Assembly (NCBI GenBank): GCA_001029635.1
Contig: CP011209.1
Span: 286,866 to 350,865 of the forward strand
Direction of reading: 5' to 3'
Origin: Candidatus Wolfebacteria bacterium GW2011_GWB1_47_1
GTDB taxonomy: Bacteria; Patescibacteriota; Minisyncoccia; UBA6257; UBA9933
DNA length: 64,000 bases
A program made the translations under genes and the position numbers. Below are positions 1-59,606 of this stretch, in pieces. How positions within the stretch are numbered: the first letter of the stretch is position 1; each line of letters opens with the position of its first letter. The notes below the pieces were generated by a model. It did no database searches. It saw only the letters and a program-made list of their open reading frames with translations, and was not told the origin of the DNA.

Positions 1-1
1 G

Positions 2-1842: not shown

Positions 1843-1908
1843 AAAAGTTCATAAGGTTTATAAAGTTTATGAAGTTCGTAAGGCAGAATACAAAATACGA
1901 TATACGAA

Positions 1909-3012: not shown

Positions 3013-3064
3013 CTCAAGTATAAAGTATTTGGTATTATGTATGATGTATAAATACAAAAGATGT
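3013..3064 (+). repeat. Conserved 3'UTR element of the tag family (copy after gene 3)
   Basis: ctcaagtataaagtatttggtattatgtatgatgtataaatacaaaagatgt. Near-identical copies at 5213-5264 and 10853-10906, and a divergent one at 12063-12118. Confidence 0.7.
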
Positions 3065-3261
3065 AGAATATATAAAAGTTTATAAGGTAGGATGCAAAAT
3101 ACAAAGATACAAGATACGGAATACTTGATAATAAATACCGGGTTCAAAATATCACTAAAAAGTGGTATAATTGAACATATAGAAATTGATTTGTTACTTA
3201 ACATGTTACGTAACTCGTCTTAACTAAAGTCGTGCCAAGGCAGGCATGCTACGTAACAAAA

Positions 3262-5181: not shown

Positions 5182-5212
5182 ATGAAGACGGAGCGGGCTG
5201 AGTGTGGAATGA

Positions 5213-5264
5213 CTCAAGTATAAAGTATTTAGTATTGTGTATAATGTATAAGTACAAAAGATGT
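5213..5264 (+). repeat. Conserved 3'UTR element (copy after gene 4), preceded by a vestigial second tag
   Basis: 5195-5212 gggctgagtgtggaatga (GLSVE*) is identical to the end of gene 3, out of frame and 13 nt after the real stop. Confidence 0.7.
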
Positions 5265-5331
5265 AAAATGCAATAAAAGCTTAAGAAGCTTAATACAAGA
5301 TACTAAATACAAGATACGAAATACTAACAAA

Positions 5332-6885: not shown

Positions 6886-6926
6886 GTAGGTGAGTATTTA
6901 AATAAGTATTTAGATTTATTATTGAG

Positions 6927-8648: not shown

Positions 8649-8652
8649 AATT

Positions 8653-9768: not shown

Positions 9769-9811
9769 TTGGATGGGCGTTAAAATAGGTGTCCAGATAG
9801 ACGCCTTAATT

Positions 9812-10852: not shown

Positions 10853-10906
10853 CTCAAGTATAAAGTATTTGGTATTACGTATGATGTATAAATACAAAAA
10901 GATGTG
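10853..10906 (+). repeat. Conserved 3'UTR element (copy after gene 8)
   Basis: ctcaagtataaagtatttggtattacgtatgatgtataaatacaaaaagatgt. Confidence 0.7.
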
Positions 10907-11000
10907 AAATACATAAAAGTTTATAAAGTTCGTAATGTTTATAAAGCAGAATACTAAATACTAAATACGAAATACTAATAAAAAGTGGTATAATTAAGAA

Positions 11001-12062
11001 ATGATAAAACAAATGCTGAAAACTTTTCTTTTTCTCGCGATGTTTTTCTTGCTGCCAAATTTTTCCCAGGCCGCAATTATCTTTGAGGATAATTTCAATG
11101 ATTCTCCCGATTGGCAATCGGCTGAGTCTTATCCGAGCACGAATGCCGGCTGGCCAAACACCTGGAAGGATAAACCAGGTGGTCCAAGTCAGCCCCCTCC
11201 GCAAAACTGGACGGCGTACAGTGCAGCTATCCCAAGATGGGACAGGGGTCCAACTTGGAAATTAGATGCTAGTGGTGCTCGAAATTCCGGAAAGGGTATC
11301 ACTTTTGCAGTTGAGGCTGTGCATACCTGGGCGGGCGGTGGTCTGGATTTATATCTGGGAAACGTTGGATATCAAGAATTATATGTACGGGGATATTACA
11401 AATATGATCCAGTAACTTTTCATTGGCCGACTATAAACAATGAAGGCATTAATAACGGGAATTATCATAAGATTGCCAGGATTTCCAGATATCAACTGGA
11501 GCCATCCTTGGTAAATAATCCGCAGCAATTTTTAGCTCCCAGTTATCAGGCGCCAACTTTCTATCCTGAGGTTGCAGTAAACACGGGCACTGGTTATCAA
11601 AATCCGCCAGATCTCAATGCTGTCCATTTTCTTGGCGCGCGCGTTTTTGATCCTGGCGCTGGCGATGCTTCGGCGGAAGATGTTTATACTCTGCCAATGC
11701 CATCGGATGGTGGTTGGCATAGTTATGAATTTAGGGTAAAGATGAACAGCGCGCCGGGCGTTGCGGATGGCGAATGGGAGGTGTGGGTTGATGATGGCGT
11801 AAATCCTTACCAGCATCATAAGCGGACTGGGCTTGCTTGGATCGGCGCCGATTCAGTAAATGGCCTTTCTCCTGGTTGGAACTGGGTTAATGCTTTGGAT
11901 AATATAACCATAAATCAAACAGGAACCATCTACGAGAACACGGAGATGAAAATATTTCTAGATGATTTTGTGATCAGTGATTCTTTTATTGGTAAGGATT
12001 ATGTGATTGGCACTGCTGATATTACCGCACCTGCCGCACCGACAGGATTAGGGGTGACGTAA
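11001..12062 (+). CDS. Secreted tag-family protein (jelly-roll)
   Basis: Signal peptide plus AIIFEDNFNDSPDWQSAE. WHSYEFRVKMNSAPGVADGEWEVWVDDG. Tail DITAPAAPTGLGVT*. An extended -10 box TGGTATAAT lies at 10985-10993. Confidence 0.75.
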   Translation: MIKQMLKTFLFLAMFFLLPNFSQAAIIFEDNFNDSPDWQSAESYPSTNAGWPNTWKDKPGGPSQPPPQNWTAYSAAIPRWDRGPTWKLDASGARNSGKGITFAVEAVHTWAGGGLDLYLGNVGYQELYVRGYYKYDPVTFHWPTINNEGINNGNYHKIARISRYQLEPSLVNNPQQFLAPSYQAPTFYPEVAVNTGTGYQNPPDLNAVHFLGARVFDPGAGDASAEDVYTLPMPSDGGWHSYEFRVKMNSAPGVADGEWEVWVDDGVNPYQHHKRTGLAWIGADSVNGLSPGWNWVNALDNITINQTGTIYENTEMKIFLDDFVISDSFIGKDYVIGTADITAPAAPTGLGVT

Positions 12063-12150
12063 ATTCATGTATAACGTATTTGGTATTATGTATGAAGTAT
12101 GAATAATATAAAATTCAAGATTTAAATACCTATTTAATACCCAACTAAAA

Positions 12151-13287
12151 ATGCCAAAGCAAACACTAAAAGCTTTTCTTTTTCTAGCGATGTTTTTCTT
12201 GTTGCCTAATTTTTCCCAGGCCGCAATTATTTTTGAGGATAATTTCAATGATTCTCCCGATTGGCAATCGGCCGAATCAAACCCCGGTGATAATGTGGAC
12301 TGGTTCAGTTCTTCTTGGATACGCAATCCATCTGGCCCACCGGAACCTCCCATGCAAAATTGGACTTCATATCGGACAGAAATTCCATTGGGTAACTCAG
12401 TGAAAAGATATATTTTAAGTGAAGAAGGGAAACGTGGAATAAGCGGAAAAGGGGTAACTTATAATGTGGAGAGCAGCGGGACGTGGTCGGGAGGTGGTCT
12501 GGATCTTTATCTTGGAAATACTGGATATCAGGAAATTTTTGTACGCTTTTATTTGCGTTATGATCCCGCGACTTGGGTGTGGGCACTGCGTGAAACTGGT
12601 TTAAATGGGGAAAAGCAGAAACTCATACGCATCTCGAGGTTAAAGGATGAGCCTACGGCCCAAACTGCATGGAATCCTCAGTTGTTTGACACTGCAGCGT
12701 CAGGTGGACATCAGATGCCAGTTTTATATCCGGATGTCAAAGAAAATAACGGCGCTGGTTATAATACCCCATCTGTAAATGGCTTGTATGGTTTGTATCT
12801 TGAATATACCAGGCGCTTTGATCCTGAATATGGAAGCGAATCCCCATCTGAAACAAGATCATTCCCCATGCCGTCTTTAGGATTGAAAAATTTTGTTCCT
12901 CCGACTTCAGGAACTGATTCAAGTACGGATTATTATAAAACTGATGGAGATTGGCATTCCTACGAATTCCGCGTGAAAATGAATAGCGCGCCAGGGGTGG
13001 CTGATGGAGAATGGGAAACTTGGGTTGATGGTGGGGAAAATCCTGCCCAGCATACATTAAAAATCGGAGTAGCTTGGGTTTCATCTGGAGGATCAGTAAG
13101 TCCAGGATGGAACTGGTTTACAGTGCTTGATAATGTGAATACAGCTACCGGTCTGCCAAACGGTACGATTATGAAGATGTACATGGATGATTTTGTAGTC
13201 AGTGATTCCTTTATTGGTAAAGATTATATCATCGGTACAGCTGATATCACCGCACCTGCAGCACCGACAGGGTTGGAGGTAATATAA
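12151..13287 (+). CDS. Secreted tag-family protein (jelly-roll)
   Basis: Close paralog of 11001..12062. Tail DITAPAAPTGLEVI*. Confidence 0.75.
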   Translation: MPKQTLKAFLFLAMFFLLPNFSQAAIIFEDNFNDSPDWQSAESNPGDNVDWFSSSWIRNPSGPPEPPMQNWTSYRTEIPLGNSVKRYILSEEGKRGISGKGVTYNVESSGTWSGGGLDLYLGNTGYQEIFVRFYLRYDPATWVWALRETGLNGEKQKLIRISRLKDEPTAQTAWNPQLFDTAASGGHQMPVLYPDVKENNGAGYNTPSVNGLYGLYLEYTRRFDPEYGSESPSETRSFPMPSLGLKNFVPPTSGTDSSTDYYKTDGDWHSYEFRVKMNSAPGVADGEWETWVDGGENPAQHTLKIGVAWVSSGGSVSPGWNWFTVLDNVNTATGLPNGTIMKMYMDDFVVSDSFIGKDYIIGTADITAPAAPTGLEVI

Positions 13288-13330
13288 TTAGATGGGTATT
13301 TAAATAAGTATCCAGATAGACGCCTTAATT

Positions 13331-14491
13331 ATGCGAAAACAAATTTTAAAATCAATTTTATTTCTGGGTACTTTTTTAATGCTGCCTAATTCTTCCCAGG
13401 CTGCGATTATTTTTGAGGATAATTTTGACGACACTCCCAATTGGCAATCGCAGCAGCTTACTTTCGGAGGCGGAGGGATCGCTTGGGGCACGCCAACTTT
13501 CCAGGGAACTTGCATTGGATATTGTCCGCCGCAAAATTGGACTTCATATCGTACTTCGCAATCTCTCTGGACGCCAAATGCTAGAGATACGTATCTTATC
13601 GATTCAAGCGGATCGCGCACAGTTAATGGTAAGGGTTTGACATATAACGTGGAGTCTAGTGGTGAATGGGGAACTTGGGCTGGCGGAGGAATTGATAAAT
13701 ATCTCGGCGTCACCGGTTATCCCGAGCTTTATGTTAGATTCTGGCTGAAGGAGTCGGCTGAATTTTGTTGGGGATCGGAAGCGTTAAATCTCAATGCCAT
13801 GGGAAAGTTAATAAGAATCAGCGCACTAAGACGGGATCCAACTAGTAATCCGAACATTTTCAATCCGCAACTCTATCCTTCATCCGATGTAAGCCCAACG
13901 CTGATTGGGAATGCATATCGCCGATTTCAGCCAAATTATGGCGTGCCTGCTCAATTCGATATGGAAGAAAGATATGCGCCTAATTATGAATATGGACCAC
14001 AGTGCACGTTTGGTCCGCAACCTTCCTCTTGCGCATCGGAAGCTCCCAGCGCGATAACTTTTCCGCATGACAATTCTGGGTATTGCGGCGATGACCAATG
14101 GCATAGCTATGAATATTATGTGAAACTTAATTCAGCCTTGGATGCGACCGATGGAATTTATAAAGCTTGGCTGGATGGAACTTTGGTGGCGCAAAAAAGT
14201 AATATTCCTTGGGTAAAATCCGGCACTGATACTAATGGCACTGCGATGACGTTGGATACTGGTTGGAATTGGGTGATGATCGCTGACAATATCGATTCAA
14301 CCGCTTACGCTAAATCTGACAACGTTGAGATGTCTAGATATATAGACGATGTGGTTATGTATACGCCGATGAACGGTTCTGAAATGGCGTGTGGTGGGGC
14401 ATGTATTGCCGGACGACTGCCGCTAACCTATTTACAATCAGGGCTTGATAGTACCCCTCCCTCCGCCCCGACAGGGCTTAGCATAGAATAG
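13331..14491 (+). CDS. Secreted tag-family protein (jelly-roll), the most divergent tag
   Basis: Signal peptide MRKQILKSILFLGTFLMLPNSSQA. Tail GLDSTPPSAPTGLSIE*. Confidence 0.7.
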   Translation: MRKQILKSILFLGTFLMLPNSSQAAIIFEDNFDDTPNWQSQQLTFGGGGIAWGTPTFQGTCIGYCPPQNWTSYRTSQSLWTPNARDTYLIDSSGSRTVNGKGLTYNVESSGEWGTWAGGGIDKYLGVTGYPELYVRFWLKESAEFCWGSEALNLNAMGKLIRISALRRDPTSNPNIFNPQLYPSSDVSPTLIGNAYRRFQPNYGVPAQFDMEERYAPNYEYGPQCTFGPQPSSCASEAPSAITFPHDNSGYCGDDQWHSYEYYVKLNSALDATDGIYKAWLDGTLVAQKSNIPWVKSGTDTNGTAMTLDTGWNWVMIADNIDSTAYAKSDNVEMSRYIDDVVMYTPMNGSEMACGGACIAGRLPLTYLQSGLDSTPPSAPTGLSIE

Positions 14492-14670
14492 GGGTTATAT
14501 GGTATACTTATCCCAAATCCTATATCAAGGAAAACAAAGACCCACGTGTGTATGGCTCTGAATGGTTGCTTCTGAATCGTGGCGAGTTGACTGGCAAAAC
14601 CGACCTAAGAAATCTACTATGTATAGTTGATTTAGGGTCGGTTTTTACATTATATGAACATAAAAAATAA

Positions 14671-15078: not shown

Positions 15079-16785
15079 ATGAACAAAAAAGCATTTATCG
15101 GTTTACTGACGTTCGTTTTGGGAATGATGGCAGTATCCCATGCGCATGCCGGAACGGCAACACTTACATGGAATGCCAATAACGAGTCGGATCTGTCCGG
15201 GTATAAGGTCTATTATGACACTACGTCTCATTCCGGGAATTGTCCAAGCGGGTTTGGGCTAAATGTAGTCAGTGTCGGCAATGTAACGACGCACACGTTC
15301 AATAATCTTACGGATGGACAAACATATTACTTTCAGGTAACGGCAATCGATACATCGAGCAATGAGAGTACATGCTCGGCGCAGGTGTCAAAGGTGATTG
15401 CCGCAACGGACACTACCACACCAATAACCACCGCATCGCCACTCGGCGGATCATACGCATCTGCGCAAACGGTGACGATGTCGGTCAACGAAACAGCAAC
15501 CGTTTACTACACGCTTGATGGTTCAACCCCAACGATTGCCTCAACGCAGTACACGGGTCCTATATCGATCACATCGACAAAGACACTCAAATATTTCGCA
15601 AAAGATACGGCAGGGAATAGTGAGGCAGTGAAGACACAGGCATATACGATCACAATTCCGGACACTACCGCACCAATAACCACCGCATCACCACTCGGCG
15701 GATCATACGCATCTGCGCAAACGGTGACGATGTCGGTCAACGAAACAGCAACCGTTTACTACACGCTCGACGGGACAACTCCGACCGTTGCTTCAACACA
15801 GTACACGGGTCCTGTATCGATCACATCGACAAAGACGCTCAAATATTTCGCAAAAGATACCGCAGGGAACAGCGAGGCAATAAAATCACAGACGTATGTT
15901 ATTACGATCGTATCGAGTGACACTACTGTGCCGTCGGTCCCGGAAAATCTTACGGCAACGCCGATCGCTCCAACGCTGATCAATCTCGCATGGAGCGCGA
16001 GTACGGACGATGTGGGAGTGACGCACTATAAAGTCTATCGCCATGATGTGGAAATCGCGACAGTAACCGGGTTAGCCTATTCGGATGAAGGACTCAGTCT
16101 TTCGACAGTGTATCGATATAGGATAGCCGCAGTTGACGCAGCCCTAAACACATCCGCTCGCTCAAATGAGGTAAGCGCGACAACGAGTGCGCTTCCGGTA
16201 GCCGCATCGGGAGGAGGATCATCGAGTGGTGGTGGGGGAGGAGGCGGAGGATCGTCAGCGAGTGTGACCCAATCACAACCTACGACCCCTGTACTATCTG
16301 GTACGACGCAACAAGCTACGACTACTGCGACACCCGTTGTTACTGTGATAACGACGGGATCTCAACAGGGAACGACGGTAACTGCCGGAAGCGGGGGAGG
16401 GCAATACTCCCAGTTCGGCGCATATGTAACAAGAAAGCATCTTGTGTACGGATCGCGAGGGGAAGACGTAAAAAAGCTCCAGGAGTTTCTTAGGGTAGAT
16501 GGATACCTTAAGGAAAGCGCAACCGGCTATTACGGAAAGGCGACACAAGCCGCCATTCAAAAGTTTCAACAAGAGCACGCAATCGCTGGACCGGGAAAGG
16601 ATGGATATGGTGAGGTGGGCATAAAAACACGTTCAGTCATGAATCAGCATTTAAATGGATCGGTAGCGGGGGTCGCAACGGCTACCGATACACAGGAGTT
16701 GTTAAAAAAGCAGATCGCGCTTTTGCAGCAAAAAGTCATCGAGCTACTCAAGCAGTTGGCTGAGATGCAAAAGAAGAGTCTATGA
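15079..16785 (+). CDS. Cell-wall-associated scaffold protein: signal peptide, Fn3 lacking A-strand, 2x 84-aa chitobiase-C-like repeats, complete Fn3, G/S/T-rich linker, peptidoglycan-binding domain, coiled coil
   Basis: MNKKAFIGLLTFVLGMMAVSHAHA|GTATLTWNAN... is Fn3 from the B-strand. TQYTGPISITSTKTLKYFAKDTAGNSE occurs twice. The second Fn3 has a full A-strand (DTTVPSVPENLTAT). PG_binding_1-like (GSRGEDVKKLQEFLRVDGYL..GYYGKATQAAIQKFQ). C-terminal heptad coiled coil. Confidence 0.7.
   Translation: MNKKAFIGLLTFVLGMMAVSHAHAGTATLTWNANNESDLSGYKVYYDTTSHSGNCPSGFGLNVVSVGNVTTHTFNNLTDGQTYYFQVTAIDTSSNESTCSAQVSKVIAATDTTTPITTASPLGGSYASAQTVTMSVNETATVYYTLDGSTPTIASTQYTGPISITSTKTLKYFAKDTAGNSEAVKTQAYTITIPDTTAPITTASPLGGSYASAQTVTMSVNETATVYYTLDGTTPTVASTQYTGPVSITSTKTLKYFAKDTAGNSEAIKSQTYVITIVSSDTTVPSVPENLTATPIAPTLINLAWSASTDDVGVTHYKVYRHDVEIATVTGLAYSDEGLSLSTVYRYRIAAVDAALNTSARSNEVSATTSALPVAASGGGSSSGGGGGGGGSSASVTQSQPTTPVLSGTTQQATTTATPVVTVITTGSQQGTTVTAGSGGGQYSQFGAYVTRKHLVYGSRGEDVKKLQEFLRVDGYLKESATGYYGKATQAAIQKFQQEHAIAGPGKDGYGEVGIKTRSVMNQHLNGSVAGVATATDTQELLKKQIALLQQKVIELLKQLAEMQKKSL
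15409..15912 (+). repeat. Near-identical tandem 252-bp direct repeat inside the scaffold gene (two 84-aa domain copies)
   Basis: 15409-15660 and 15661-15912 differ by only a few nucleotides. Confidence 0.8.
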
Positions 16786-47600: not shown

Positions 47601-48638
47601 TTGTTTCCCATCTCCTATGATAGGATAAAACCAATGAACGGGAACCCGATGGAACAAAAGAAAGGAGAGCAAGATTTTCAGATCGACACGTTGTTGCGAC
47701 CGGATAATTGGGATTCCTATATAGGACAGGAGCGTATTAAGGCGAACGTGAAGATCATGATCGAGGCCGCGCAAAAGCGCGGGGAGCGACCTGATCACCT
47801 ACTCTTCTATGGCCCGCAGGGGCTAGGCAAGACGACGATCGCGAATCTGATCGCAAAGGAAATGGGTGCGCAGTTACGTATTACTTCGGGTGTAAACCTG
47901 GAAAAGACGGGAGACCTAGTGTCGACGCTTGCGAATCTCGAAGAAGGGGATATTTTGTTCGTTGATGAAGCACACCGCATCAACCGAACAATCGAGGAAA
48001 TTCTCTACCCGGCGATGGAGAGTAGAAAGCTTCATATGATGGTAGGGAAGGGGCCGGCGGCACGGCAGCTGACGCTCGACTTGCCGGCATTCACGCTGAT
48101 CGCAGCGACAACGCGCGTAAATTTGTTGTCCGCTCCGCTCCGCTCCCGTTTTGGCGCGATCTTCAGTATGGACTATTATGAGCAGGCGCATATCGAAGAG
48201 ATTATCCGTCGATCGGCGGGGATTCTCGGATTACAGATCGAAAGTGGTGCGGTTGCGTCGATTGCTCGTGCTGCGCGTTTTACGCCGCGAACGGCAAACC
48301 GGTTACTCAAGCGTGTGCGCGATTATGCCCAGGTGCACAACATGGCGACGATCGGGGAGGAGGCGGTCTACGACACGCTCGAGATGCTGGAGATCGATGA
48401 ACTTGGCCTGGAGAAATGGGATAGAAAGTTACTGGAAAGCATCATTAAGAAGTTTAAAGGAGGTCCAGTTGGTCTCAATACACTAGTTGCCATTCTAGGT
48501 GAGGATAAAGGGACGGTTGAGGAGATCTATGAACCCTTCCTTATTAAGATGGGATTGTTGCAGAAGACGCCATCAGGACGTGTGGTCACCGACGAGGCGT
48601 ATGATCATTTGAATTTAAGACAGTTTAAGGTACAATGA
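47601..48638 (+). CDS. ruvB: Holliday junction branch-migration helicase RuvB
   Basis: LRP..W..YIGQE, Walker A GPQGLGKTT, sensor and arginine finger, C-terminal winged helix. Confidence 0.9.
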   Translation: MFPISYDRIKPMNGNPMEQKKGEQDFQIDTLLRPDNWDSYIGQERIKANVKIMIEAAQKRGERPDHLLFYGPQGLGKTTIANLIAKEMGAQLRITSGVNLEKTGDLVSTLANLEEGDILFVDEAHRINRTIEEILYPAMESRKLHMMVGKGPAARQLTLDLPAFTLIAATTRVNLLSAPLRSRFGAIFSMDYYEQAHIEEIIRRSAGILGLQIESGAVASIARAARFTPRTANRLLKRVRDYAQVHNMATIGEEAVYDTLEMLEIDELGLEKWDRKLLESIIKKFKGGPVGLNTLVAILGEDKGTVEEIYEPFLIKMGLLQKTPSGRVVTDEAYDHLNLRQFKVQ

Positions 48639-48651
48639 CCACTACACGATT

Positions 48652-49389
48652 ATGAGTTATTTATTCAATACCTATCTATATATACCGTTATACAACGCAT
48701 TGATCTATCTCTACGACAAGGCGTCGTGGGGAGACTTAGGCATTGCGATCATCGTATTGACGATACTGGTCCGTATCGTACTCTATCCGTTCTTCTACAA
48801 AGGGGCGAAGGATCAGGCGATCATGCAAAAGATCGCACCGAAGCTCAAGGAGATTCAAACGAAGCTTAAGGATGACAAACAGAAGCAGGTTGAGCAGATG
48901 ATGGCGCTCTATAAGGAGCATAAGGTAAATCCGTTTTCCGCATTCTTCCTATTATTGGTAGTGCAGTTGCCGATCCTATTCGCAATGTTCAAAGTGTTTA
49001 CGACGGGGCTTAAGACAATGCCTCAGGATATTCTCTATGCATTTGTCCCACACGTTGAAACATTAAATTATTCGTTCTTGGGCATCATGGACCTTTCTCA
49101 AAAGAATATGCTCTTGATCGTATTGACCGCAGTTGCGCAATATTATCAGGCGAAGTTGACCTTGCCTAAAAGTAACAAGGCATTCAAAGATCTTGAAATG
49201 GCGGAAATGATGGGGAGGCAGATGATGTATATGGGGCCAATATTGACGGTGGTCGTATTACTCGCCATGCCATCGGCGATCGCATTGTACTGGCTGACAA
49301 CAACCTTGTTTTCTATCGGACAACAGGTCATAATCAACAAAAAGATAAACATCGTTAAGGATCATGGAAAACTCACTGTCGCTGAATGA
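48652..49389 (+). CDS. yidC: Membrane protein insertase YidC (short form)
   Basis: 5-TM Oxa1/YidC core with KLKEIQTKLKDDKQKQVEQMMALYKEHKVNP. Confidence 0.8.
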   Translation: MSYLFNTYLYIPLYNALIYLYDKASWGDLGIAIIVLTILVRIVLYPFFYKGAKDQAIMQKIAPKLKEIQTKLKDDKQKQVEQMMALYKEHKVNPFSAFFLLLVVQLPILFAMFKVFTTGLKTMPQDILYAFVPHVETLNYSFLGIMDLSQKNMLLIVLTAVAQYYQAKLTLPKSNKAFKDLEMAEMMGRQMMYMGPILTVVVLLAMPSAIALYWLTTTLFSIGQQVIINKKINIVKDHGKLTVAE

Positions 49390-49801
49390 TACAATCAAAG
49401 CATTGATCGAAAAGATGGGATTTCGGGACTACTCTGTCAGTTACGATGAAGAGAAGCGGAGATTCAGCATTCTGATCGAAGATGGAAAGTTTCTGGAAAA
49501 GAATCTGCAGGGATTTATTGCCGACCTTAACTACCTGGTAAAGTTGATCACGAAAAAGTATGACTGGGAGCCGGTGATGCTCGACGTGAACAACTATCGC
49601 CGACAGCGCGAAGATCTGATCGTCGAGCTGGCAAAGGCGGCGGCCCGCAAGGTTGCGGCAACGCAGACCGAGATATCGCTTCCGCCGATGAATGCATATG
49701 AGCGACGTTTGATCCATGCCGAGCTCGCAGAGCGTCCCGATCTCAAGACTGAAAGCAAGGGAGAAGGAAAGGAGCGCGCGGTAGTGATTAAGCCATTATG
49801 A
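49364..49801 (+). CDS. Jag/KhpB-like RNA-binding protein (KH plus R3H)
   Basis: R3H motif YERRLIHAELA. Canonical position after yidC. Confidence 0.75.
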   Translation: MENSLSLNDTIKALIEKMGFRDYSVSYDEEKRRFSILIEDGKFLEKNLQGFIADLNYLVKLITKKYDWEPVMLDVNNYRRQREDLIVELAKAAARKVAATQTEISLPPMNAYERRLIHAELAERPDLKTESKGEGKERAVVIKPL

Positions 49802-49828
49802 AAAAAAACGCCTCTGGGCGTTTTTTTG
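49801..49828 (+). terminator. Terminator whose T-run feeds into a TTGACA -35 box at 49830
   Basis: cgcc-tctg-ggcg plus T7, then GTTTGACA. Confidence 0.55.
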
Positions 49829-49899
49829 TTTGACAGGGAGGTTAGGTATGGTATTTACTGGACTCAGAACAATACAAGGTAAAACACAGGGGGTGCATA

Positions 49900-50454
49900 A
49901 TGGATACCAAGCAAAGGATATCAAATTATTCGATGCTACTGGGGATGTGCGTGGTAGGAAACTCCGGCAAGTGGCGGGATGAGGTTTGTCATCTCGATTT
50001 CGACACTGCGGTTGAGCAGTATCGGGTGTTCAAGAAGGCGGGATACAGGGATGTATCGCTGGTCCCGACCTATTTCGTGATGGATGTGTACGGGGAGTAT
50101 CACGTGGTGACCGCAGGGAACCCCATTGCAGTTGCTGAGCATCCGATTCCGGCGCGGTATTCGCGCGCCGACCTCAATCCTGGAATATCGGTATATGACT
50201 ACGACAGAGACGTACTCAAGCGGGGAATATCCTTCGTAGAAGGGCTGATTTCTGTGGCTGTTTCTTTACTCCTCTTCGGTGGATCGATTGCAGCGTTCAT
50301 GCGGATCTTGAGGTGGCTGGTAGGACCACTCGAACTGGGCTACGGACTGTTGGTTTGCGTATTGGTACTTACCGGCTTCGCCATGATTGTAAGAAGGTGG
50401 TTTTGTCTGTGTCTGCAGGTAGGGGAATGGTTCGTGGGGCATAGCGAAAAGTGA
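49900..50454 (+). CDS. Paralogous membrane-protein family member A (unknown function)
   Basis: Shares P[AS]RYSRADL.PGI.V.YDRDVLKR followed by 2 TM helices with the next two genes. Confidence 0.5.
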   Translation: MDTKQRISNYSMLLGMCVVGNSGKWRDEVCHLDFDTAVEQYRVFKKAGYRDVSLVPTYFVMDVYGEYHVVTAGNPIAVAEHPIPARYSRADLNPGISVYDYDRDVLKRGISFVEGLISVAVSLLLFGGSIAAFMRILRWLVGPLELGYGLLVCVLVLTGFAMIVRRWFCLCLQVGEWFVGHSEK

Positions 50455-50577
50455 AAGCGGGTGAACCTCGCATAAGGCAAGGGGCTATCGAAAGGCGGCC
50501 TCTTTTTTTGTTGACAAAAATAGTAAAAATATATTAGATAAGAAACAGTACTAACAAAACAGAGAAAAGGAGGATAC

Positions 50578-51399
50578 GTGAATAACATGTTGGAGGCAAA
50601 GGCTCAGGGCGGAGGCAAGGTATATTTGAATATCTCGGAAGATACATGCATGAGGTTTGGCTTCAAGCATGGTCAGCGCATTATCGATCCGCATTATGAC
50701 AAGGGTGTCGTCATGGGGGTTGCGCCTGCAGAGCCGGGAGCGTCGGATGTGCTCTGGTTCGCGTTCGACTGCGATGAAGGCGAGATTCGTTACTGGGATG
50801 AGCACGTGGATCTCGTACAGGAAGGGTTTAAGCGCATCGATCTCACAACCGAAGAAGTACTCAACGAGACGGTAGTGTGCTTTCGGGTGACTGCCACAAC
50901 GAACGGAAAGGCGGAGTCAGTGATCGTGCGCGACGTGGTGGTCGCTGCGGCACAGGGGAAGGTGTTTCTCCGGGCAGGGCATAAGGAGTTCATGACGAAT
51001 CCGGTCATGGTGCTTTTCGATAAGAGTGGTGATCGCGGCGATGTGTTCGGGGACAAGTTTATCGAGACGGCGGAGGTGCATGGTGCGCCGATTCCTTCGC
51101 GGTATTCGCGCGCCGACCTTTATCCCGGTATTACGGTTAAAGCCTACGATCGTGACGTCCTCAAGCGCAGAGTAACCTGGGTACAGGTTGTAGTCGTAAT
51201 GCTCGTTGCGCTTGTGATTATGGCAGCAGGCATGGGGATGGCGGCGGCTCTGGTGATCGTATTGAGTAGGTTCTTTGATCCGTTATTTGCTAGCCTGGGC
51301 CTGTTCGTAGCGGTTAGCATACTGCTCCTGAGTAAAAAAGATCAGACGCTAATAATGGCCTGCGGCATGTGGGTTGCGGGCATCCAGGAAGGCGATTAG
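50578..51399 (+). CDS. Paralogous membrane-protein family member B (unknown function)
   Basis: TNGKAESVIVRDVVVAAAQGKVFLRAGH...PSRYSRADLYPGITVKAYDRDVLKRR plus 2 TM. Own terminator and TTGACA promoter upstream. Confidence 0.55.
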   Translation: MNNMLEAKAQGGGKVYLNISEDTCMRFGFKHGQRIIDPHYDKGVVMGVAPAEPGASDVLWFAFDCDEGEIRYWDEHVDLVQEGFKRIDLTTEEVLNETVVCFRVTATTNGKAESVIVRDVVVAAAQGKVFLRAGHKEFMTNPVMVLFDKSGDRGDVFGDKFIETAEVHGAPIPSRYSRADLYPGITVKAYDRDVLKRRVTWVQVVVVMLVALVIMAAGMGMAAALVIVLSRFFDPLFASLGLFVAVSILLLSKKDQTLIMACGMWVAGIQEGD

Positions 51400-51519
51400 A
51401 ACGGTATGAAGCCGCGCGTACAAACGCGCGGCTTTTTTGTTGTTGACAAAAAAGCAGAAAAAAGTGTTAACTAATACCAGTTATTTAAACGCAACACAAA
51501 AATACGCACGGGAGGAGCT

Positions 51520-52119
51520 ATGGGAGAATGGTTACCGGGAGCCGCGATAGGTTCGAGTTTCGAGCATTGTTTGGAAGTATGCGCCTGTACGAACGGAAAG
51601 GCGGAACGCGTGGTGGTAATCGATGATGTGGCTGTCGCAGCCGAGCAGGGTAGGGTGTTCCTACGCGCTGGGCATACGATGTTCTATGTCGAACCGGTCA
51701 TGCTTTTCCTGAACAATTGGGGAGAGTATTTTGTGGAAACTAGCGACGGCAAGGTGGATATCGGTAGGGTTTATGAGGGAGTGGTCCCGTCTCGGTACCA
51801 CCGGGCGGATATATGGCCCGGCATCAAGGTGCGTATCTATGATCGGGATGTGCTGAAGCGTAAACGCGCAACTCAGGCAGAGAATTTCTGCGTGGTATTT
51901 CTGGAAATGGCACTCGCAGCGTTAACGGTCTTCCCGGCCGTCCAGGCCGTGATGAATGTAGGGGAGATGCTTCACGTGGGAATCGGAGCGAGGAGCCTCA
52001 TGGTCGTTGCGATCGGAATGCTTATGCGCAAGCCCGCATTGCGCTGGATGGAAGATGTCGACAGGAGAGTAGAAAGGTTCATGGGCATCCCCTCGATCGA
52101 AGAGTGGAAAGCCAACTAA
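51520..52119 (+). CDS. Paralogous membrane-protein family member C (unknown function)
   Basis: TNGKAERVVVIDDVAVAAEQGRVFLRAGH...PSRYHRADIWPGIKVRIYDRDVLKRK plus 2 TM. Confidence 0.55.
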   Translation: MGEWLPGAAIGSSFEHCLEVCACTNGKAERVVVIDDVAVAAEQGRVFLRAGHTMFYVEPVMLFLNNWGEYFVETSDGKVDIGRVYEGVVPSRYHRADIWPGIKVRIYDRDVLKRKRATQAENFCVVFLEMALAALTVFPAVQAVMNVGEMLHVGIGARSLMVVAIGMLMRKPALRWMEDVDRRVERFMGIPSIEEWKAN

Positions 52120-52502
52120 AAACGACAAAAACCGGGCACCCAAGGCGCCCGGCTTTTTTGCATATGAATTTGCACCCGACTGCAAACTGTAAAAATAGAG
52201 ATCAGATAAGTGAAGAAAATTTCCCCCGTATTCTTTCGCGAGCTGTAAAAAAGCGATCAGAATGAACGCAAAAAATTCCCACAGAATCCGAGGTGCGGGG
52301 ACCCGTTGAAAAACGGGCGCACCCTCGGACTTCGTAAGAAATTTTTAAGGTTATTCCGATTTTTTATTTTGCTCGCAGGCTTTTTGGTGCTTTTTCCAGA
52401 AAAAGCACAAGAAACATTTCTTTCAAATAGAAGTGGATTTAGTCTATTTCGTAATAATTTATTTTTCTAAACCTAGAAATTTTTAAAATGCCTTACGGCA
52501 TT

Positions 52503-54722
52503 TTAAAGTTCTCCCCAGTTATCTCCAATCTCCACATTGACGGTCAAAGGAACTTTGAGTGTATAGATTGATTCGAGAACACTCTTTATTTCTTCGACAA
52601 TCTTTGGCAATCGATCAGTGTCCTTGATTTCAAACACCAATTCATCGTGAACGGTGAGGAGCATTTTTACGTCAGTACCCCAAAGATTTTCGGCGGAAAG
52701 ATATTCCTTTATCTTAACCATGGAAGACTTAATGATATCCGCTCCGACGCTTTGAATAGGGAAGTTGATGGCCATGCGCTCTGCTTCGGATTGGAGCATT
52801 TTGTTGAATGATGTGATTTCGGGAAGTGGACGTATGCGTCCGTTGATATTTTCAACAAATCCCTGCTCCCGCACCTTCGCAAGGATGGTGTCTTGCCATT
52901 GCTTGATGGTTGAGAAGTCCTTGAAATATTCATCAATGAATTGCTTAGCCTCCTTGGGCGTAAGACCACTTTGTTGGGCAAGTGCTCGTGCACCCATGCC
53001 ATAAATAACCCCAAAATTAAGTGTCTTGGCGACCTTGCGCATTGTTGGGGTCACATCATTAAGCGAGACATTATAGATCTTACTCGCGGTGATCTGATGG
53101 ATGTCGGAATTGCTCTTGAACGCGCGCATCATTTCCGGGTCTTCCGTTAATGAAGCAAGAATGCGCAACTCGATCTGAGAATAATCGAGCGAGACAAGTT
53201 TGTATCCTCTTTGCGAGACAAAGATCTCGCGCACTGAGGGAGGAATATTCTGCAGGTTCGGGTTTTCGCACGTAATGCGACCCGTTGCCGCCTTCATTTG
53301 GACGAATGTGGGATGGATTCGACCGTCGCCACCTTGTGCTACTTCTACCGAAGGGTCGGTCATGCGCTTGATCGGCTCAAGATAGGTCGATTTCAACTTG
53401 AAGAGTTCTCGATATTTAAGCAGAAGGTCGACAAACGGTACAGTATCGCGGAAGGGTTCGATCTTGTCGATATTAGTAGACTTGATCTTAAGTCCATAGT
53501 TCGTTTTAAGGATTGTAAGGATCTGCTTCGGTGAGTTTGGATTGAATACCTGTCCGGCTTCCGCATAAAGTTCTTTGGTTAGTGCGTCAATATCGCGATT
53601 GAGAACAACTTCTTTTTCCGTAAGACGGGTACGGTCGACCATGATGCCCCACTGCTTCATTTCTTCAAGAATGGGGACGAGCGGGCGCTCGACATCCTCG
53701 AGAAGCTCTTTGGAAAGCGTCTGCTGGTTGTCCAAGAAGGAGAGTTGTCCTTGAGTCTCTCGTGCATCGGGTCTTGTGCCTCGTATCGCATGTTCTCCCG
53801 GAGTGAGCCTTTTAATAATGGAATTAAATCCAAGATCCTTTAAATACGAGATGATCGTTTCGATGGGGAATTGCGTATATTCGATTTCAGAAATGTCGGT
53901 GATGGCAAGCGGCGCATCGCGGCGAATAGTCGCTAGATGTTTTGAAAGTAGAGCGATATCTTCGTGCTCGATAAGCTTTTTATAGGAAAGCATTTTTTTA
54001 TCCGTGGCGTCGGATGACTTGATTGCGGAAAAAAATGATTCAATGGTGCCGAATTGTTTAATGATGGCCAGTGCGGTAACTTCGCCAACCTTCGGAACTC
54101 CCGGAATATTGTCGGACGTATCTCCGGTTAGCCCCTTGTAGTCGACAAAAAGAGACGGAGAAAATCCATACCGTTCTTCAAATGCGATCTGATCATAGGT
54201 GATCGTCTCGCTGATGCCTTGTTTGAGCGTTTCGACGACAACCCGCTTGTCGTCGATCAGTTGGAACATATCCTTATCGCCGGTCAAGATGACGATTTGA
54301 ATATCCTTTTCATGCTTAAATAGTTCGATCGCGGTACCGATGAGATCGTCCCCCTCAAAGCCGGGAATCTCGTATGTTTTTACGCCAAAGGTGTCGAAGA
54401 GGTTGTGCGCTTCAATAATCTGTGCCACAAGTCCGTCATCGGCTTTAGGGCGGTGTGCTTTGTATTGGTCATACAACTCCTTGCGAAACGTAGGTTCCGG
54501 ACGGTCAAAGAATGCTACGGCATATTCGGGGTGTTCTTCCTTGAATATCTTGATCAGAACATTGGAAAGGCCATAGAGCGCTCCACTCGGACGCCCATCG
54601 GGCGTGGTAAGATTGGGGATGGCGTGAAATGCCCGATGGATGAGCGCATTCGCATCAATAAGCAATAACTTCTTCATGTGCATAGTATAACATAGAGTCG
54701 TCGTTCCCTCCCGTATTGTCAT
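52503..54722 (-). CDS. polA: DNA polymerase I (5'-3' exonuclease plus polymerase; no room for a full 3'-5' exonuclease domain)
   Basis: N-terminal FEN-like KKLLLIDANALIHRAF. Pol A motifs RKVAKTLNFGVIYGMGA and VHDELVFE. The probable start is MKKLL at about 54677. Confidence 0.9.
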   Translation of the reverse strand: MTIREGTTTLCYTMHMKKLLLIDANALIHRAFHAIPNLTTPDGRPSGALYGLSNVLIKIFKEEHPEYAVAFFDRPEPTFRKELYDQYKAHRPKADDGLVAQIIEAHNLFDTFGVKTYEIPGFEGDDLIGTAIELFKHEKDIQIVILTGDKDMFQLIDDKRVVVETLKQGISETITYDQIAFEERYGFSPSLFVDYKGLTGDTSDNIPGVPKVGEVTALAIIKQFGTIESFFSAIKSSDATDKKMLSYKKLIEHEDIALLSKHLATIRRDAPLAITDISEIEYTQFPIETIISYLKDLGFNSIIKRLTPGEHAIRGTRPDARETQGQLSFLDNQQTLSKELLEDVERPLVPILEEMKQWGIMVDRTRLTEKEVVLNRDIDALTKELYAEAGQVFNPNSPKQILTILKTNYGLKIKSTNIDKIEPFRDTVPFVDLLLKYRELFKLKSTYLEPIKRMTDPSVEVAQGGDGRIHPTFVQMKAATGRITCENPNLQNIPPSVREIFVSQRGYKLVSLDYSQIELRILASLTEDPEMMRAFKSNSDIHQITASKIYNVSLNDVTPTMRKVAKTLNFGVIYGMGARALAQQSGLTPKEAKQFIDEYFKDFSTIKQWQDTILAKVREQGFVENINGRIRPLPEITSFNKMLQSEAERMAINFPIQSVGADIIKSSMVKIKEYLSAENLWGTDVKMLLTVHDELVFEIKDTDRLPKIVEEIKSVLESIYTLKVPLTVNVEIGDNWGEL

Positions 54723-54942: not shown

Positions 54943-56208
54943 ATGAAATCAAATCGCGGATTTTCATTATTGGAAACTCTCCTATATCTCGGGATTTTTG
55001 CTATCGTAGGCGGTTCGCTGTTCGGTATCCTTACTAATGTTGTAAGGATGACGACACGGGAAATATCGGGAGATGAAATCGCGGGGCAGTTGCAGTTTAC
55101 GATAGGAACCATTACACGACTAGTACGAGAATCATCGGCAATAGAGATGGCGACAAGCACGGCGACAACGACCATTAAGCTAAGAATGACAAATAGTATG
55201 CAGGATCCCACATGCATTTCGCTGGTTGGCGGGGTATTGAAGCTTGCGCAAGGCCCCGATCCGTTTCAACCGCAAAATTGTACTGCAACGACCACGGATA
55301 TTACGACCAGTAAGGTTGTTGTAGATAGTGCGTTGTTTAAGCGCCTGGAATTTCCGGGCGGGCACGATCAGATCGCGATCGATCTGCAGATTTCCAATAC
55401 GGGAATAGGGACAAATAAGATATCACGAGCGCTGCGCTCGGGCGTTTCCCGCGCATCTGCGGCAACATTTGACGCAGACCTGCTTCCCAATGCCGATGCG
55501 GTATATGAAGTGGGGTCATCCATTCCCGGAGGAAAACGATGGAAGAACGCTGCATTTTCTGGCAACCTTACCGTTGCAGGGAATATGGGGGTTGGAGTGA
55601 CTAATCCAGGGACAAAACTGACCCTCTCGGGAGGAGACGATGCGGCTAGTACGGGAATATTGCAATTGATAACCGCAGGCGGAACAAATCTTAAGTTGGG
55701 AGGTAATACGACATATAGTTGGATACAAAGTCACGCTACGAAGCCATTGTACATCAATCAATTGGGGAATAATGTGGTTCTTAACTTAGGCGCAGGGAAT
55801 GTAGGTATTGGTACGGCGGGGCCGACGTATAAGCTACAGGTGAATGGCAATGCGGCAAATACGACCGGCGTATGGGCGGTTGCGTCGGATGAACGACTAA
55901 AGCGTGACATACTACCGATCGAAGGGGCATTGCAGATGGTCACGGCGCTGCAGGGAGTGGGATTTAATTGGAGGGACGACATAAAAAACGAGCAGTTTGG
56001 ACAGGTTATGGGCTTTATCGCGCAAGATGTCGAAAGGGTGTTGCCGCAATGGGTAAAGACCGATGCGGATGGATATAAACGCATCGAAGCAATCGGCATA
56101 GATGCATTGCTTGTAGAAGCGATCAAAGAGCAACAACAGCAGATACTGAATCAGAAAAAGGAAATAGAGGTACTTAAAGAAATGATGATGCAGATACAGA
56201 ATAGATAA
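54943..56208 (+). CDS. Type IV pilin-like (class III signal peptide) protein with a C-terminal endosialidase-type intramolecular-chaperone domain
   Basis: MKSNRGFSLLETLLYLGIFAIVGG is a prepilin leader with G|F and E5. Tail-fibre-like VGIGT..P..KL.V.G motifs. C-terminus GFIAQDVERVLPQWV...LLVEAIKEQQQQI resembles Peptidase_S74 chaperone regions. Confidence 0.6.
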   Translation: MKSNRGFSLLETLLYLGIFAIVGGSLFGILTNVVRMTTREISGDEIAGQLQFTIGTITRLVRESSAIEMATSTATTTIKLRMTNSMQDPTCISLVGGVLKLAQGPDPFQPQNCTATTTDITTSKVVVDSALFKRLEFPGGHDQIAIDLQISNTGIGTNKISRALRSGVSRASAATFDADLLPNADAVYEVGSSIPGGKRWKNAAFSGNLTVAGNMGVGVTNPGTKLTLSGGDDAASTGILQLITAGGTNLKLGGNTTYSWIQSHATKPLYINQLGNNVVLNLGAGNVGIGTAGPTYKLQVNGNAANTTGVWAVASDERLKRDILPIEGALQMVTALQGVGFNWRDDIKNEQFGQVMGFIAQDVERVLPQWVKTDADGYKRIEAIGIDALLVEAIKEQQQQILNQKKEIEVLKEMMMQIQNR

Positions 56209-57590: not shown

Positions 57591-59606
57591 ATGCAGACAA
57601 AGAATATCATTCATCTGTCAGGAGTCGCAATTGCGATCATACTATCGTTGGTCATTGCGCAAGAGGGATTCGCATGGACGAGTCCAACGAGCAACCCACC
57701 GATAAGCACACCGGCAATAGCGGTATCAGGAAGCAGTGTCGGTATTGGTACTGTAAACCCGCAAGAAAAACTCGAAGTCATCGGAAACATTCGATTTCCG
57801 GATAACACTGCATGGACGCTGACCAAGCGTGCAGACAATGTACAACCCTTGATTCGCACATCTCGTACGGATAATTCTCAGGTGGGGTTATTTCAAATCA
57901 ATGGATGGGGAGACTATTCTTTTGACCGCTCACTCGGCATCGGCTATGACCTCGCAGGAGGGACTATGGGGGCAGGTAATGTATTCATTGCTGGACGACA
58001 GACGATCGGCACCGCAACGCCTGACGCAAACTATCGCCTCACCACCAGCGGTGGCGGTATTAAGGCAGAAAACAACAGCGCAACCCAGCCTGCCGGCTAT
58101 TTCAATAATGCAGGCGGAGGCCCTGCCATTACCGTCGGCACGGGAGGTCTTACGTTGGGAGGTGTGAATCGCACAACATGGGGGAGTGGAGACAATCTCG
58201 GCAACCATACCGCAACCGCTGCCTTGAATATGTCAGGCAATGATATTACCGCATTGCGTAACCTAACCCTGAGTGGGACTATGACCCCGAACGGGGTTGG
58301 ATTTGATTCGGGTCTCACCGGCGACCGTGCCTATCAGTTCGGCTATCAGGAGGGAGGCGCGTGGGCGTTCCCGTATCCTGATCTGATCTTTGGCTATCAT
58401 ACCGGTGTTAAAATCGGTGGATATTATGGCTATGGCGGAACCCGTTTTTATAACGACCATCCATCTCGCGCTGGCGCAACGGAGATCCTTTCCGTAGGCA
58501 ATGGCGACAACCACGTACGTGTTGCGAATAATCTGTATGTTACGGGCAATGTCGGCATCGGCACATCCGCGCCTGCCGTAAAGCTGCATGTGAACGGATC
58601 AGTGCGAGGCGATCAGGCTGGCGCATTGCGCATCGACAGCGGAAGCGGAGTGCTTGATATTGGCGCGATGAACGCAGGCTATGCGCATTTCCAGACCGAT
58701 CGACCCTCATTCTATTTGAATAAAACAACAGCCATAGATGGCGCATTGACCAACTATTCCAATGCGTATCATTTGGCGCAGAGCGGCGTCTCTTATTTGA
58801 ATGGCGGCAATATCGGTATCGGTACGACAGATCCAACTTCCCAAATGGCGGGAACGCAAGGTATCGGTATCTTCAAGAATAACTACCCCGCGATCGGATT
58901 CAAGAACGATTCGTCTTCATGGCTTTGGTATGCCAGTGGTGTAACATTTCGCTTGTGGAATGCCTCTGCGGGAGATTTATTGACCGCGAATACTTCCGGC
59001 AATGTTGGGATTGGTACCATAACTCCAGCGCAAAAATTAGATGTAAATGGATATATTAAAGGGTCTGGATTATGTATTGGAACCGACTGTAAGACGGCAT
59101 GGAATCAGGTAGTTGTAGTCCCCGTGGCAACTGCATCAACAACATGCATTACTCCGAATTATTGCATCACTCCGGTAACGGACATTATCTATAATCTAGC
59201 TGCGGTACCGAATACATTGCGTTCGCAAAATACACCAGGAACAACGAATGAATCGAACGTTATTTGTTTGAGTGTGAATTATTGTATCGTGGCTGCGACC
59301 AATAAGATTTACCTATTAGATGCGGCAACGAATGCAATACGCTCACAGAACACTTCCGGAACGGTCGGGAAGTCAAAAATCATTTGCCTTTCGACTAATT
59401 ATTGCGTCAGTACGGGAACGGATATTATCTATACGCTCGATGCGGTAACGAATATATTGCGTTCTCAGCCTGCTCCAGGCGTAAGCGCTACGTCACCGTT
59501 TACTTGTAGTACCGTGAATTATTGCGTCATATTAGGAACAAATAAGACGTATGTGTATGATGCGCAGGTAAACACACTGCGTTCTCAAAATACTCCCGGA
59601 ACGTAA
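57591..59606 (+). CDS. Secreted tail-fibre-like repeat protein with five C-terminal ~37-aa Cys-containing repeats
   Basis: Signal peptide, then repeated (V/I)GIGT..P..KL.VNG motifs shared with 54943..56208. C-terminal repeats C..NYC......IY.LDA.TN.LRSQNT.GT x5. Confidence 0.55.
   Translation: MQTKNIIHLSGVAIAIILSLVIAQEGFAWTSPTSNPPISTPAIAVSGSSVGIGTVNPQEKLEVIGNIRFPDNTAWTLTKRADNVQPLIRTSRTDNSQVGLFQINGWGDYSFDRSLGIGYDLAGGTMGAGNVFIAGRQTIGTATPDANYRLTTSGGGIKAENNSATQPAGYFNNAGGGPAITVGTGGLTLGGVNRTTWGSGDNLGNHTATAALNMSGNDITALRNLTLSGTMTPNGVGFDSGLTGDRAYQFGYQEGGAWAFPYPDLIFGYHTGVKIGGYYGYGGTRFYNDHPSRAGATEILSVGNGDNHVRVANNLYVTGNVGIGTSAPAVKLHVNGSVRGDQAGALRIDSGSGVLDIGAMNAGYAHFQTDRPSFYLNKTTAIDGALTNYSNAYHLAQSGVSYLNGGNIGIGTTDPTSQMAGTQGIGIFKNNYPAIGFKNDSSSWLWYASGVTFRLWNASAGDLLTANTSGNVGIGTITPAQKLDVNGYIKGSGLCIGTDCKTAWNQVVVVPVATASTTCITPNYCITPVTDIIYNLAAVPNTLRSQNTPGTTNESNVICLSVNYCIVAATNKIYLLDAATNAIRSQNTSGTVGKSKIICLSTNYCVSTGTDIIYTLDAVTNILRSQPAPGVSATSPFTCSTVNYCVILGTNKTYVYDAQVNTLRSQNTPGT

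Follow-up and report, generated by a model that had tools for sequence, protein, structure and literature searches.

A tandem array of fast-evolving, apparently module-swapping membrane-protein cassettes in Candidatus Wolfebacteria, possibly involved in biological conflict

A stretch of 64,000 nucleotides from the genome of Candidatus Wolfebacteria GW2011_GWB1_47_1 (contig CP011209.1, positions 286,866 to 350,865; hereafter the window, in whose own coordinates all positions are given) carries, between a jag/R3H gene and polA, a tandem array of three paralogous genes for small membrane proteins, designated A, B and C, the first of which has a product labelled hypothetical protein UX70_C0001G0353 in NCBI. 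The array is a real, well-delimited feature that is native to the chromosome, and its genes define a previously undescribed orphan family limited to a narrow Wolfebacteria-like clade. Each protein consists of a cytoplasmic domain, a 25-residue conserved juxtamembrane motif, a variable membrane hairpin and a short amphipathic tail. Sequence comparisons indicate that the three genes are autonomous promoter-gene-terminator cassettes, that they evolve rapidly although under net purifying selection, and that new alleles arise by swapping of cytoplasmic and membrane modules at the motif and by short recombination patches. We favour, as a tentative reading held with limited confidence, that the family acts in biological conflict, most plausibly in phage exclusion, abortive infection or immunity.

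Results

Three paralogous proteins with a cytoplasmic core, a conserved motif and a membrane hairpin

The three open reading frames (ORFs) begin at positions 49900, 50578 and 51520 (Table 1) and their products share 29-34% pairwise identity, in agreement with a previous sequence-only reading of this DNA, which had described them as tandem paralogues. The same reading had reported an invariant motif, P.RY.RAD..PGI.V..YDRDVLKR, and a regular-expression search indeed finds it once in each protein, at amino acids (aa) 84-108 of A, 173-197 of B and 90-114 of C, while a degenerate DNA pattern for part of the motif has three matches in the window, as opposed to none in 100 shuffles. A family profile run on the window finds A, B and C as the sole ORFs, with E-values of 1e-63 to 1e-65. 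A second string that had been attributed to the soluble domain of all three proteins, TNGKAE.V.V.DV.VAA.QG.VFLRAGH, is common to B and C only, with a one-residue insertion in C; gene A encodes a diverged version of this core (19-27% identity).

The two transmembrane helices proposed to follow the motif are borne out by both hydropathy and AlphaFold2. With an alignment of 26 sequences, the predicted local distance difference test score (pLDDT) is 85 for B and 89.6 for C, rising above 90 in the core domain and standing at about 75 in the motif. The core is predicted to have the order beta-beta-alpha-beta-beta-beta, the motif to form two short helices, the hairpin to consist of a long helix of about 30 residues and a shorter one of 14-17 residues, and the C-terminus to be an amphipathic helix ending in W-V-x-G-I or G-I-P-S-x-E-E-W. 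To judge from the lack of a signal peptide, and from K/R residues that border the two helices on one and the same side, both the N- and the C-terminus are probably cytoplasmic, and the proteins would insert as a hairpin with an outward loop of 6-12 residues.

Proteins of type B carry in addition an N-terminal extension, for which AlphaFold2 predicts a small SH3/Tudor-like barrel of about 75 residues. Foldseek aligns about 60 aa of this barrel with the CarD N-domain, CdnL, the Mfd RID and the UvrD/PcrA Tudor domain (4l5g, 2lqk, 6aca, 7egs and 5dma; E-value 0.017-0.15, probability 0.95-1.0, root-mean-square deviation 3-4.5 A), CAP-Gly and other SH3-like barrels matching equally well (Foldseek E-value up to 0.3). 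By profile search of the PDB, CdnL (2lqk) is reached at an E-value of just 0.72, with FKHGQRIIDP..DKGVV.GVA aligned to CdnL FRPGDKVVLPPYGVGVVAGIA, and none of seven N-extensions matches Pfam CarD_CdnL_TRCF at E-values up to 10. The extension is hence best described as a predicted SH3/Tudor-like barrel, any more specific assignment being a candidate: it resembles CarD/CdnL/Mfd-RID and the UvrD/PcrA Tudor domain in fold over about 60 residues, but differs from them in being part of a membrane-anchored protein, and RNA polymerase is no more than a putative partner.

Each gene has its own promoter and terminator

Terminator-like hairpins followed by a U-run are predicted after jag, A, B and C (folding energy -12.7 to -24 kcal/mol, z-score -2.1 to -4.7). 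As the sequence-only reading had noted, those after jag, A and B pass directly into a TTGACA element, at 49830, 50511 and 51443, respectively. A perfect TTGACA is found 67-84 nt ahead of the start codon in 13 of the 15 family genes from eight loci, and in all 13 it is followed by a 17-nt spacer and a T/A-rich -10-like hexamer (TTTAAT, TTAAAT, TTAGAT or TTTACT); eight of these promoters directly abut the T-run of the preceding terminator, and a GGAGG- or GGGGG-type ribosome-binding site comes after the hexamer in the family cassettes. Other likely promoters in the window likewise have TTGACA at -35. A consensus promoter scan missed the three array promoters, since it requires an A at position 2 of the -10 element and theirs (TTTACT, TTAGAT and TTAACT) have none. 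The recurrence of this layout means that independent transcription of the three genes, as previously proposed, is well supported by the sequence. Furthermore, the hairpins 3' of type-C genes in two related loci (L001 and L005) are homologous to the one after gene C, which suggests that the duplicated unit is the whole cassette. Rfam gives sub-threshold matches only, all of them on the terminators.

An orphan family confined to a narrow clade

A profile search of 1.84 billion cluster representatives retrieves 23 proteins, of which 22 are true members; the remaining one, P0027, is a spurious match to a eukaryotic cysteine-rich repeat protein that looks chitin-binding. No further members are recovered with a profile of the core alone, and the family has no match in GTDB species genomes. 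A, B and C have no match in Pfam, NCBIfam, PHROGs or PADLOC (nothing below an E-value of 0.5 in PHROGs), and when all 26 members are run against Pfam, PADLOC and PHROGs, no consistent match emerges. Matches of single members to DUF6594, YLATT, AbiEii and an ABC transporter are typical of hydrophobic segments: AbiEii (PADLOC, E-value 0.0015) is an isolated match of one of the 26, and YLATT (Pfam, E-value 0.034), likewise found in one of the 26, counts as no evidence.

At the structural level, the core-domain model has no Foldseek match in the PDB (best E-value 0.16). FliQ, which appears in sequence searches of the PDB at an E-value of 0.39 and weaker, reflects noise from transmembrane composition. 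The anti-CRISPR protein AcrF2 was considered as a relative of the core (profile E-value 0.08) and rejected: Foldseek does not list it among PDB matches to the core-domain model, and the profile alignment places predicted strands on what we take to be an AcrF2 helix. Homology to a characterised housekeeping family, which the sequence-only reading had named as the result that would overturn its view of the array, was found by none of these searches, and no description of the family was found in the literature.

A fixed site with variable copy number

The GC content at third codon positions (GC3) of A, B and C is 0.61-0.64, against 0.59-0.61 in ruvB, yidC and jag; this agreement with core genes argues that A, B and C are not recent imports, and a foreign origin of the array was dismissed on this ground. 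Wherever the downstream side can be seen, which is the case in six independent loci (seven contigs), the 3' end of polA adjoins the array, and in most loci the array follows yidC-jag. Gene order differs between loci, and so does copy number (at least 2 to 3, possibly 1). In L001 the arrangement is ruvB-yidC-jag followed by genes for 185, 198 and 281 aa and then polA, in an order unlike that of the window. In L003, a gene for a large cysteine-rich secreted protein is followed by a B-type gene, a hybrid gene and polA; L005, L006 and L009 each show one visible copy next to polA; L007 has a secreted repeat protein followed by an A-type gene; and L008 has two copies in tandem. L004 has yidC and jag followed by one distant member, about 130 bp after which the contig ends. 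The only Joint Genome Institute (JGI) metagenome contig matched, L002, comes from the window strain itself (no base substitutions, three small indels).

Since the upstream neighbour differs in L003 and L007, the position of the array after yidC probably reflects synteny rather than functional coupling. The protein that precedes the array in these two loci (3-719 in L003, 2-1834 in L007) in place of jag is large and secreted, with repeats that have no homologue in the window, including among the genes near the array, and with a cysteine-rich C-terminus (..DYxTTCG...YCC); its N-terminal residues, about 75 of them, match the window at 16435-16665 (46% identity), far from the array.

In L001, the first array gene (8616-9173, 185 aa, P0028) has an unrelated stretch in place of the conserved motif and retains the core domain, the hairpin and an MWVIGI tail; it is either decaying or changed in function.

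The sequence-only reading had proposed to look for adjacent toxin or phage genes in related genomes. There is no toxin-like ORF in the window between 48.5 and 53.5 kb or in L001 and L003-L011, no endolysin, recombinase or other phage gene in any array locus, and no mobile-element gene nearby. With housekeeping genes on both sides and no defence or mobile genes, the site is not a variable defence island.

Rapid protein evolution

Between the window and L001, protein identity is 93.7% for RuvB, 91.0% for YidC, 91.0% for Jag, 90.0% for Enolase and 77.5% for PolA, while array proteins are 23-52% identical, the best pairs reaching 51.8, 46.7 and 33%. The corresponding nonsynonymous divergence (dN) is 0.45-0.47 in the array and 0.044-0.067 in the flanks, i.e., 8-10 times higher, and the ratio to synonymous divergence (dN/dS) is about 0.22 against 0.02-0.04, dS being saturated for all genes. 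In a close pair of loci, L003 and L005, dN/dS is 0.35 for the N-domain and 0.07 for polA. A dN/dS below 1 despite a high dN indicates functional coding genes whose proteins evolve about ten times faster, under net purifying selection.

Module exchange and strain differences

Relative to the window proteins, family members are 39-80% identical in the motif, 11-68% in the core and 9-41% in the hairpin and tail, and both types of N-domain are found with both types of tail. Two comparisons place exchange at the motif. The 194-aa gene of L003 and the gene of L005 are 87-100% identical at the DNA level (60-nt windows) through the promoter and the first 90 codons or so, fall to 27-47% across the hairpin and return to about 80% in the tail and terminator, with the breakpoint inside the conserved motif. 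Likewise, P0006 (type B, 281 aa) and P0017 (198 aa, without the N-extension) share about 25% identity ahead of the motif and 96% from there to the C-terminus.

Exchange on a smaller scale may account for differences between strains. Between the window and a near-identical strain represented by a 7,336-bp contig (L010) there are nine differences, every one of them within a 46-bp patch of gene C that encodes part of a core-domain helix (V37A, A40V, R45E and L48M; three of the differences are synonymous, the other six falling in the codons changed). In a second strain (L011, 6,766 bp), the one difference from the window is nonsynonymous and lies in gene B. Gene conversion of C from B was considered as the source of the patch and rejected, because B is not the donor: of the nine sites, some have the window allele in B and others that of L010.

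Discussion

A possible role in biological conflict

A fixed site, autonomous cassettes, an approximately tenfold rate, motif-based swapping and strain differences confined to the array together point to a role other than housekeeping. Defence, mobile-element and motility functions are over-represented among variable, fast-evolving families restricted to a lineage, and gene-family variability predicts non-essentiality (PMC9425974), which makes a conflict role the best single guess for a fast, paralogous and lineage-specific family such as this one. In such a role, the variable cytoplasmic domain would be the specificity (binding) module, the hairpin a membrane-acting or anchoring module, and the conserved motif would couple the two; with separate promoters and terminators, the gain, loss or shuffling of a cassette would have no polar effect on the others, and the presence of paralogues would widen specificity. 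Evolution that is fast, recombining and variable in copy number is typical of conflict genes such as immunity proteins.

A stronger version, which we regard as possible and no better than speculative, is that the array represents a new polymorphic conflict system of these ultra-small bacteria, built of single-protein units that each couple a variable cytoplasmic recognition domain to a variable hairpin through the motif; the motif would double as a recombination junction and the cassettes would yield many sensor-effector combinations against phages or competitors. Its protein fold and its motif would have no relatives among the defence, toxin and immunity families described so far.

Among known systems, abortive infection includes sensor proteins coupled to effectors with two transmembrane helices, such as the membrane effectors of CBASS and Pycsar and SLATT-type domains. 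The array proteins resemble these in being small and stand-alone and in fusing a soluble domain to a two-helix membrane module, but they differ in having no PADLOC model match, no signal-producing enzyme nearby and no defence island, and in that the membrane module is their least conserved part. Pfmc-2TM, Stevor and Rifin of Plasmodium are also multi-copy, highly variable families with a two-helix hairpin (PMC1751529); as eukaryotic exported surface antigens they offer a conceptual analogy only, and unlike them the array family varies in its whole hairpin as well as in its cytoplasmic domain.

Several observations weigh against a conflict role. In all genomes seen, the family sits at one and the same place in the chromosome, whereas defence genes are typically present or absent rather than fixed at one site, and its neighbours in all loci are housekeeping or surface-protein genes. 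It has no match in 2.9 million viral contigs, in 50,697 phage records (tblastn) or in 72,556 plasmid records, no convincing match in BFVD, and nothing in PADLOC or PHROGs links it to defence or phages. As dN/dS is below 1 wherever measured, positive selection is not demonstrated. The breakpoints at the motif may merely mark the only stretch with sufficient DNA identity for recombination, and the membrane hairpin, being the least conserved part, fits a passive anchor as well as an effector. Finally, the strain-level support consists of two events, with a chance of about 0.08 that both would fall in the array, and is therefore suggestive rather than significant.

Alternative explanations

The main rival to a conflict role is that A, B and C are components of a single lineage-specific membrane complex, or tethering adaptors, with an ordinary cellular role, which we consider possible, though we would not expect it. 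The proteins might recruit cytoplasmic partners to the membrane, with the motif serving as an interface for assembly or for a common partner, and the type-B barrel, as modelled, could bind a nucleic-acid enzyme such as RNA polymerase. The fixed locus and native composition in all related genomes, the persistence of recognisable A-, B- and C-type lineages across genomes and net purifying selection are consistent with this, as are the strong conservation of the motif, which would be that of a shared interface, and the likeness in predicted fold of the type-B extension to RNA-polymerase-interacting Tudor-like domains, faint at the level of sequence. However, gene order and copy number both change, the motif is missing from one L001 copy, and modules move freely from type to type. 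A rate of protein evolution about ten times that of the neighbours would be unusual for obligate subunits, and the genes are separate transcription units rather than an operon; the Tudor-like match, moreover, is weak (E-value 0.017-0.7), with none to Pfam CarD_CdnL_TRCF.

The sequence-only reading had called the genes immunity-protein-like, and the part of this claim that stands is the evolutionary pattern, which is that of conflict genes. Polymorphism, tandem paralogy and allele recombination, as known from immunity proteins, are all found in the A/B/C family. An orphan immunity array against membrane-acting toxins (bacteriocins or contact-delivered effectors), with one toxin variant per paralogue, would fit tandem polymorphic paralogues that have their own promoters, are membrane-located, evolve fast and recombine as modules. 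Yet no toxin gene or fragment is adjacent in any locus, nor is a recombinase or mobile-element gene nearby, no known immunity or defence family matches, and the proteins are mostly a cytoplasmic globular domain with a short loop facing outward; with no toxin or phage gene nearby this explanation lacks direct support, and we judge it unlikely. In polymorphic toxin/immunity systems, modules are joined at short peptide motifs such as VENN in CdiA and PxxxxDPxGL in Rhs. Their loci are similar to the array in swapping modules at a short conserved motif, in their tandem cassettes and in their high divergence, but in the array there is neither a toxin domain nor a secretion signal, delivery apparatus or pairing of toxin with immunity gene, one small, mostly cytoplasm-facing inner-membrane protein carries both variable modules, and there is no sequence or fold relationship between the two.

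It is very improbable that the genes are decaying or functionless duplicates under relaxed constraint. The high rate, the variable copy number and the L001 copy without the motif would be expected of such duplicates, but ORFs are intact in all loci, dN/dS is 0.22-0.35 rather than near 1, the motif, promoters, ribosome-binding sites and terminators are conserved, and even a shallow alignment yields confident fold predictions.

The other function suggested by the sequence-only reading, a holin-like one, here in lysis by a cryptic prophage, is rejected as close to implausible. Class II holins have two helices, both ends in the cytoplasm, about 60-150 aa that are mostly transmembrane, and a charged C-terminal tail. 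The array proteins are likewise predicted to have two helices, and both ends may lie inside, but they are 184-273 aa long with a folded N-terminal domain of 110-200 aa, and they have housekeeping neighbours and native base composition. None of the loci contains an endolysin, a spanin or any other phage gene, and PHROGs, phage genomes, viral contigs and BFVD hold no match. The cassettes do recall phage morons, which are autonomous promoter-gene-terminator units in prophages, often of foreign base composition: each array gene likewise has its own putative sigma-70-type promoter and intrinsic terminator, the hairpin being duplicated with the gene, but the array lies among ruvB, yidC, jag and polA, has the GC3 of the host core and lacks phage homologues.

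Hypermutation of gene C by a diversity-generating retroelement instead of recombination, which the clustering of nine substitutions in 46 bp of an otherwise identical 7.3 kb and the frequency of such elements in this bacterial radiation might suggest, is most improbable, as the 64 kb hold no second copy of 51560-51720 except a stretch of paralogue B at 73% identity, no reverse transcriptase is among the Pfam-labelled genes of L001 up to about 10 kb from the array (the window was not scanned in full), and the substitutions are a mix of synonymous and nonsynonymous changes, as in an imported diverged allele, the larger exchanges being of whole modules.

Significance

To our knowledge, many genes of Candidate Phyla Radiation bacteria have no assigned function, and how these bacteria deal with phages, competitors and hosts is almost undocumented. 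If its role in conflict holds, the family would be a defence or immunity family absent from current catalogues; if not, it is still a clean case of modular membrane-protein evolution. Its confinement to a very narrow clade limits its general reach. The proteins are tractable, with 184-273 aa, confident fold predictions and a 25-residue motif as a target for mutation.

Features of the array and its surroundings

Table 1. Coordinates in the window of the array, its predicted signals and modules, and the adjacent genes.
Feature	Position	Strand	Description
ruvB	47601-48638		upstream of array
yidC	48652-49389		upstream of array
jag/R3H gene	49364-49801		immediately upstream of array
jag/R3H intrinsic terminator (predicted)	49802-49829	+	hairpin and T-run abutting promoter A; -12.7 kcal/mol, z -4.7
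Promoter A (predicted)	49830-49859	+	-35 TTGACA 49830-49835, 17-nt spacer, -10-like ATTTACT
Gene A	49900-50454	+	184 aa; diverged cytoplasmic alpha/beta domain, motif, two-helix membrane hairpin, tail WFVGH
Juxtamembrane motif in A (PARYSRADLNPGISVYDYDRDVLKR)	50149-50223	+	also a 96-nt DNA repeat shared with gene B, 77% identity
Membrane hairpin of A	50245-50391	+	aa 116-164; hydropathy peaks 2.23, 2.43
Gene A terminator (predicted)	50472-50510	+	abuts promoter B; -20.5 kcal/mol, z -2.1
Promoter B (predicted)	50511-50540	+	TTGACA, 17-nt spacer, TTAGATA
Gene B	50578-51399	+	273 aa; GTG start 5 nt after AGGAGG; N-terminal small beta-barrel (extra), alpha/beta core, motif, membrane hairpin, tail WVAGI
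N-extension, type B only	50578-50862	+	aa 1-95; predicted SH3/Tudor-like barrel
Juxtamembrane motif in B	51094-51168	+	regular-expression match
Membrane hairpin of B	51178-51330	+	aa 201-251; AlphaFold2 helices 201-230 and 235-251; hydropathy
Gene B terminator (predicted)	51408-51441	+	12-bp stem, 8 GC pairs, T-run, abuts promoter C; -24 kcal/mol, z -4.7
Promoter C (predicted)	51443-51472	+	TTGACA, 17/18-nt spacer, TTAACT
Gene C	51520-52119	+	199 aa; alpha/beta core, motif, membrane hairpin, amphipathic helix, tail GIPSIEEWKAN
46-bp patch in gene C	51618-51663	+	all 9 differences between window and L010
Juxtamembrane motif in C	51787-51861	+	regular-expression match
Membrane hairpin of C	51874-52023	+	aa 119-168; AlphaFold2 helices 119-150 and 155-168
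Terminator after gene C (predicted)	52127-52161	.	two-way hairpin, A-run before and T-run after; -17.5 kcal/mol (+), -23.9 kcal/mol (-)
polA	52503-54722		downstream of array, convergent

The 380 nt between the gene C terminator and the polA stop codon (52120-52502) hold no convincing ORF; part of this interval is conserved in L003 (68% over 186 nt), it contains a repeated CTGTAAAAA...GATCAG element, and the equivalent gap is only 50-85 nt in L001, L005 and L009. The gene after polA (54943-56208) is a second fast-evolving gene beside the array: its product is 56.7% identical to the L001 counterpart, against 90-94% for nearby core genes, and that counterpart carries Peptidase_S74, a tailspike-type intramolecular chaperone. 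Further downstream, the 671-aa product of 57591-59606 has a signal-like segment at its N-terminus and, in its C-terminal part, four repeats of 40 residues (period 120 nt), each with C..NYC.

At the other end of the window, positions 1-14500 hold a second, larger tandem family of about ten consecutive genes on the + strand (348-649 aa), whose near-identical 5' ends encode the signal-peptide-like MQKQILKIFFF..LPNF and whose members have several internal and 3' repeat blocks in common; their GC3 of 0.28-0.43 is clearly below that of core genes. A 250-nt unit occurs twice in tandem at 15407-15908 (89% identical), within a 568-aa ORF at 15079-16785. Finally, five terminator-like hairpins between 18677 and 38398 have the core GCCCCGC....GCGGGGC with A- and T-runs on either side, which suggests a reused two-way terminator sequence.

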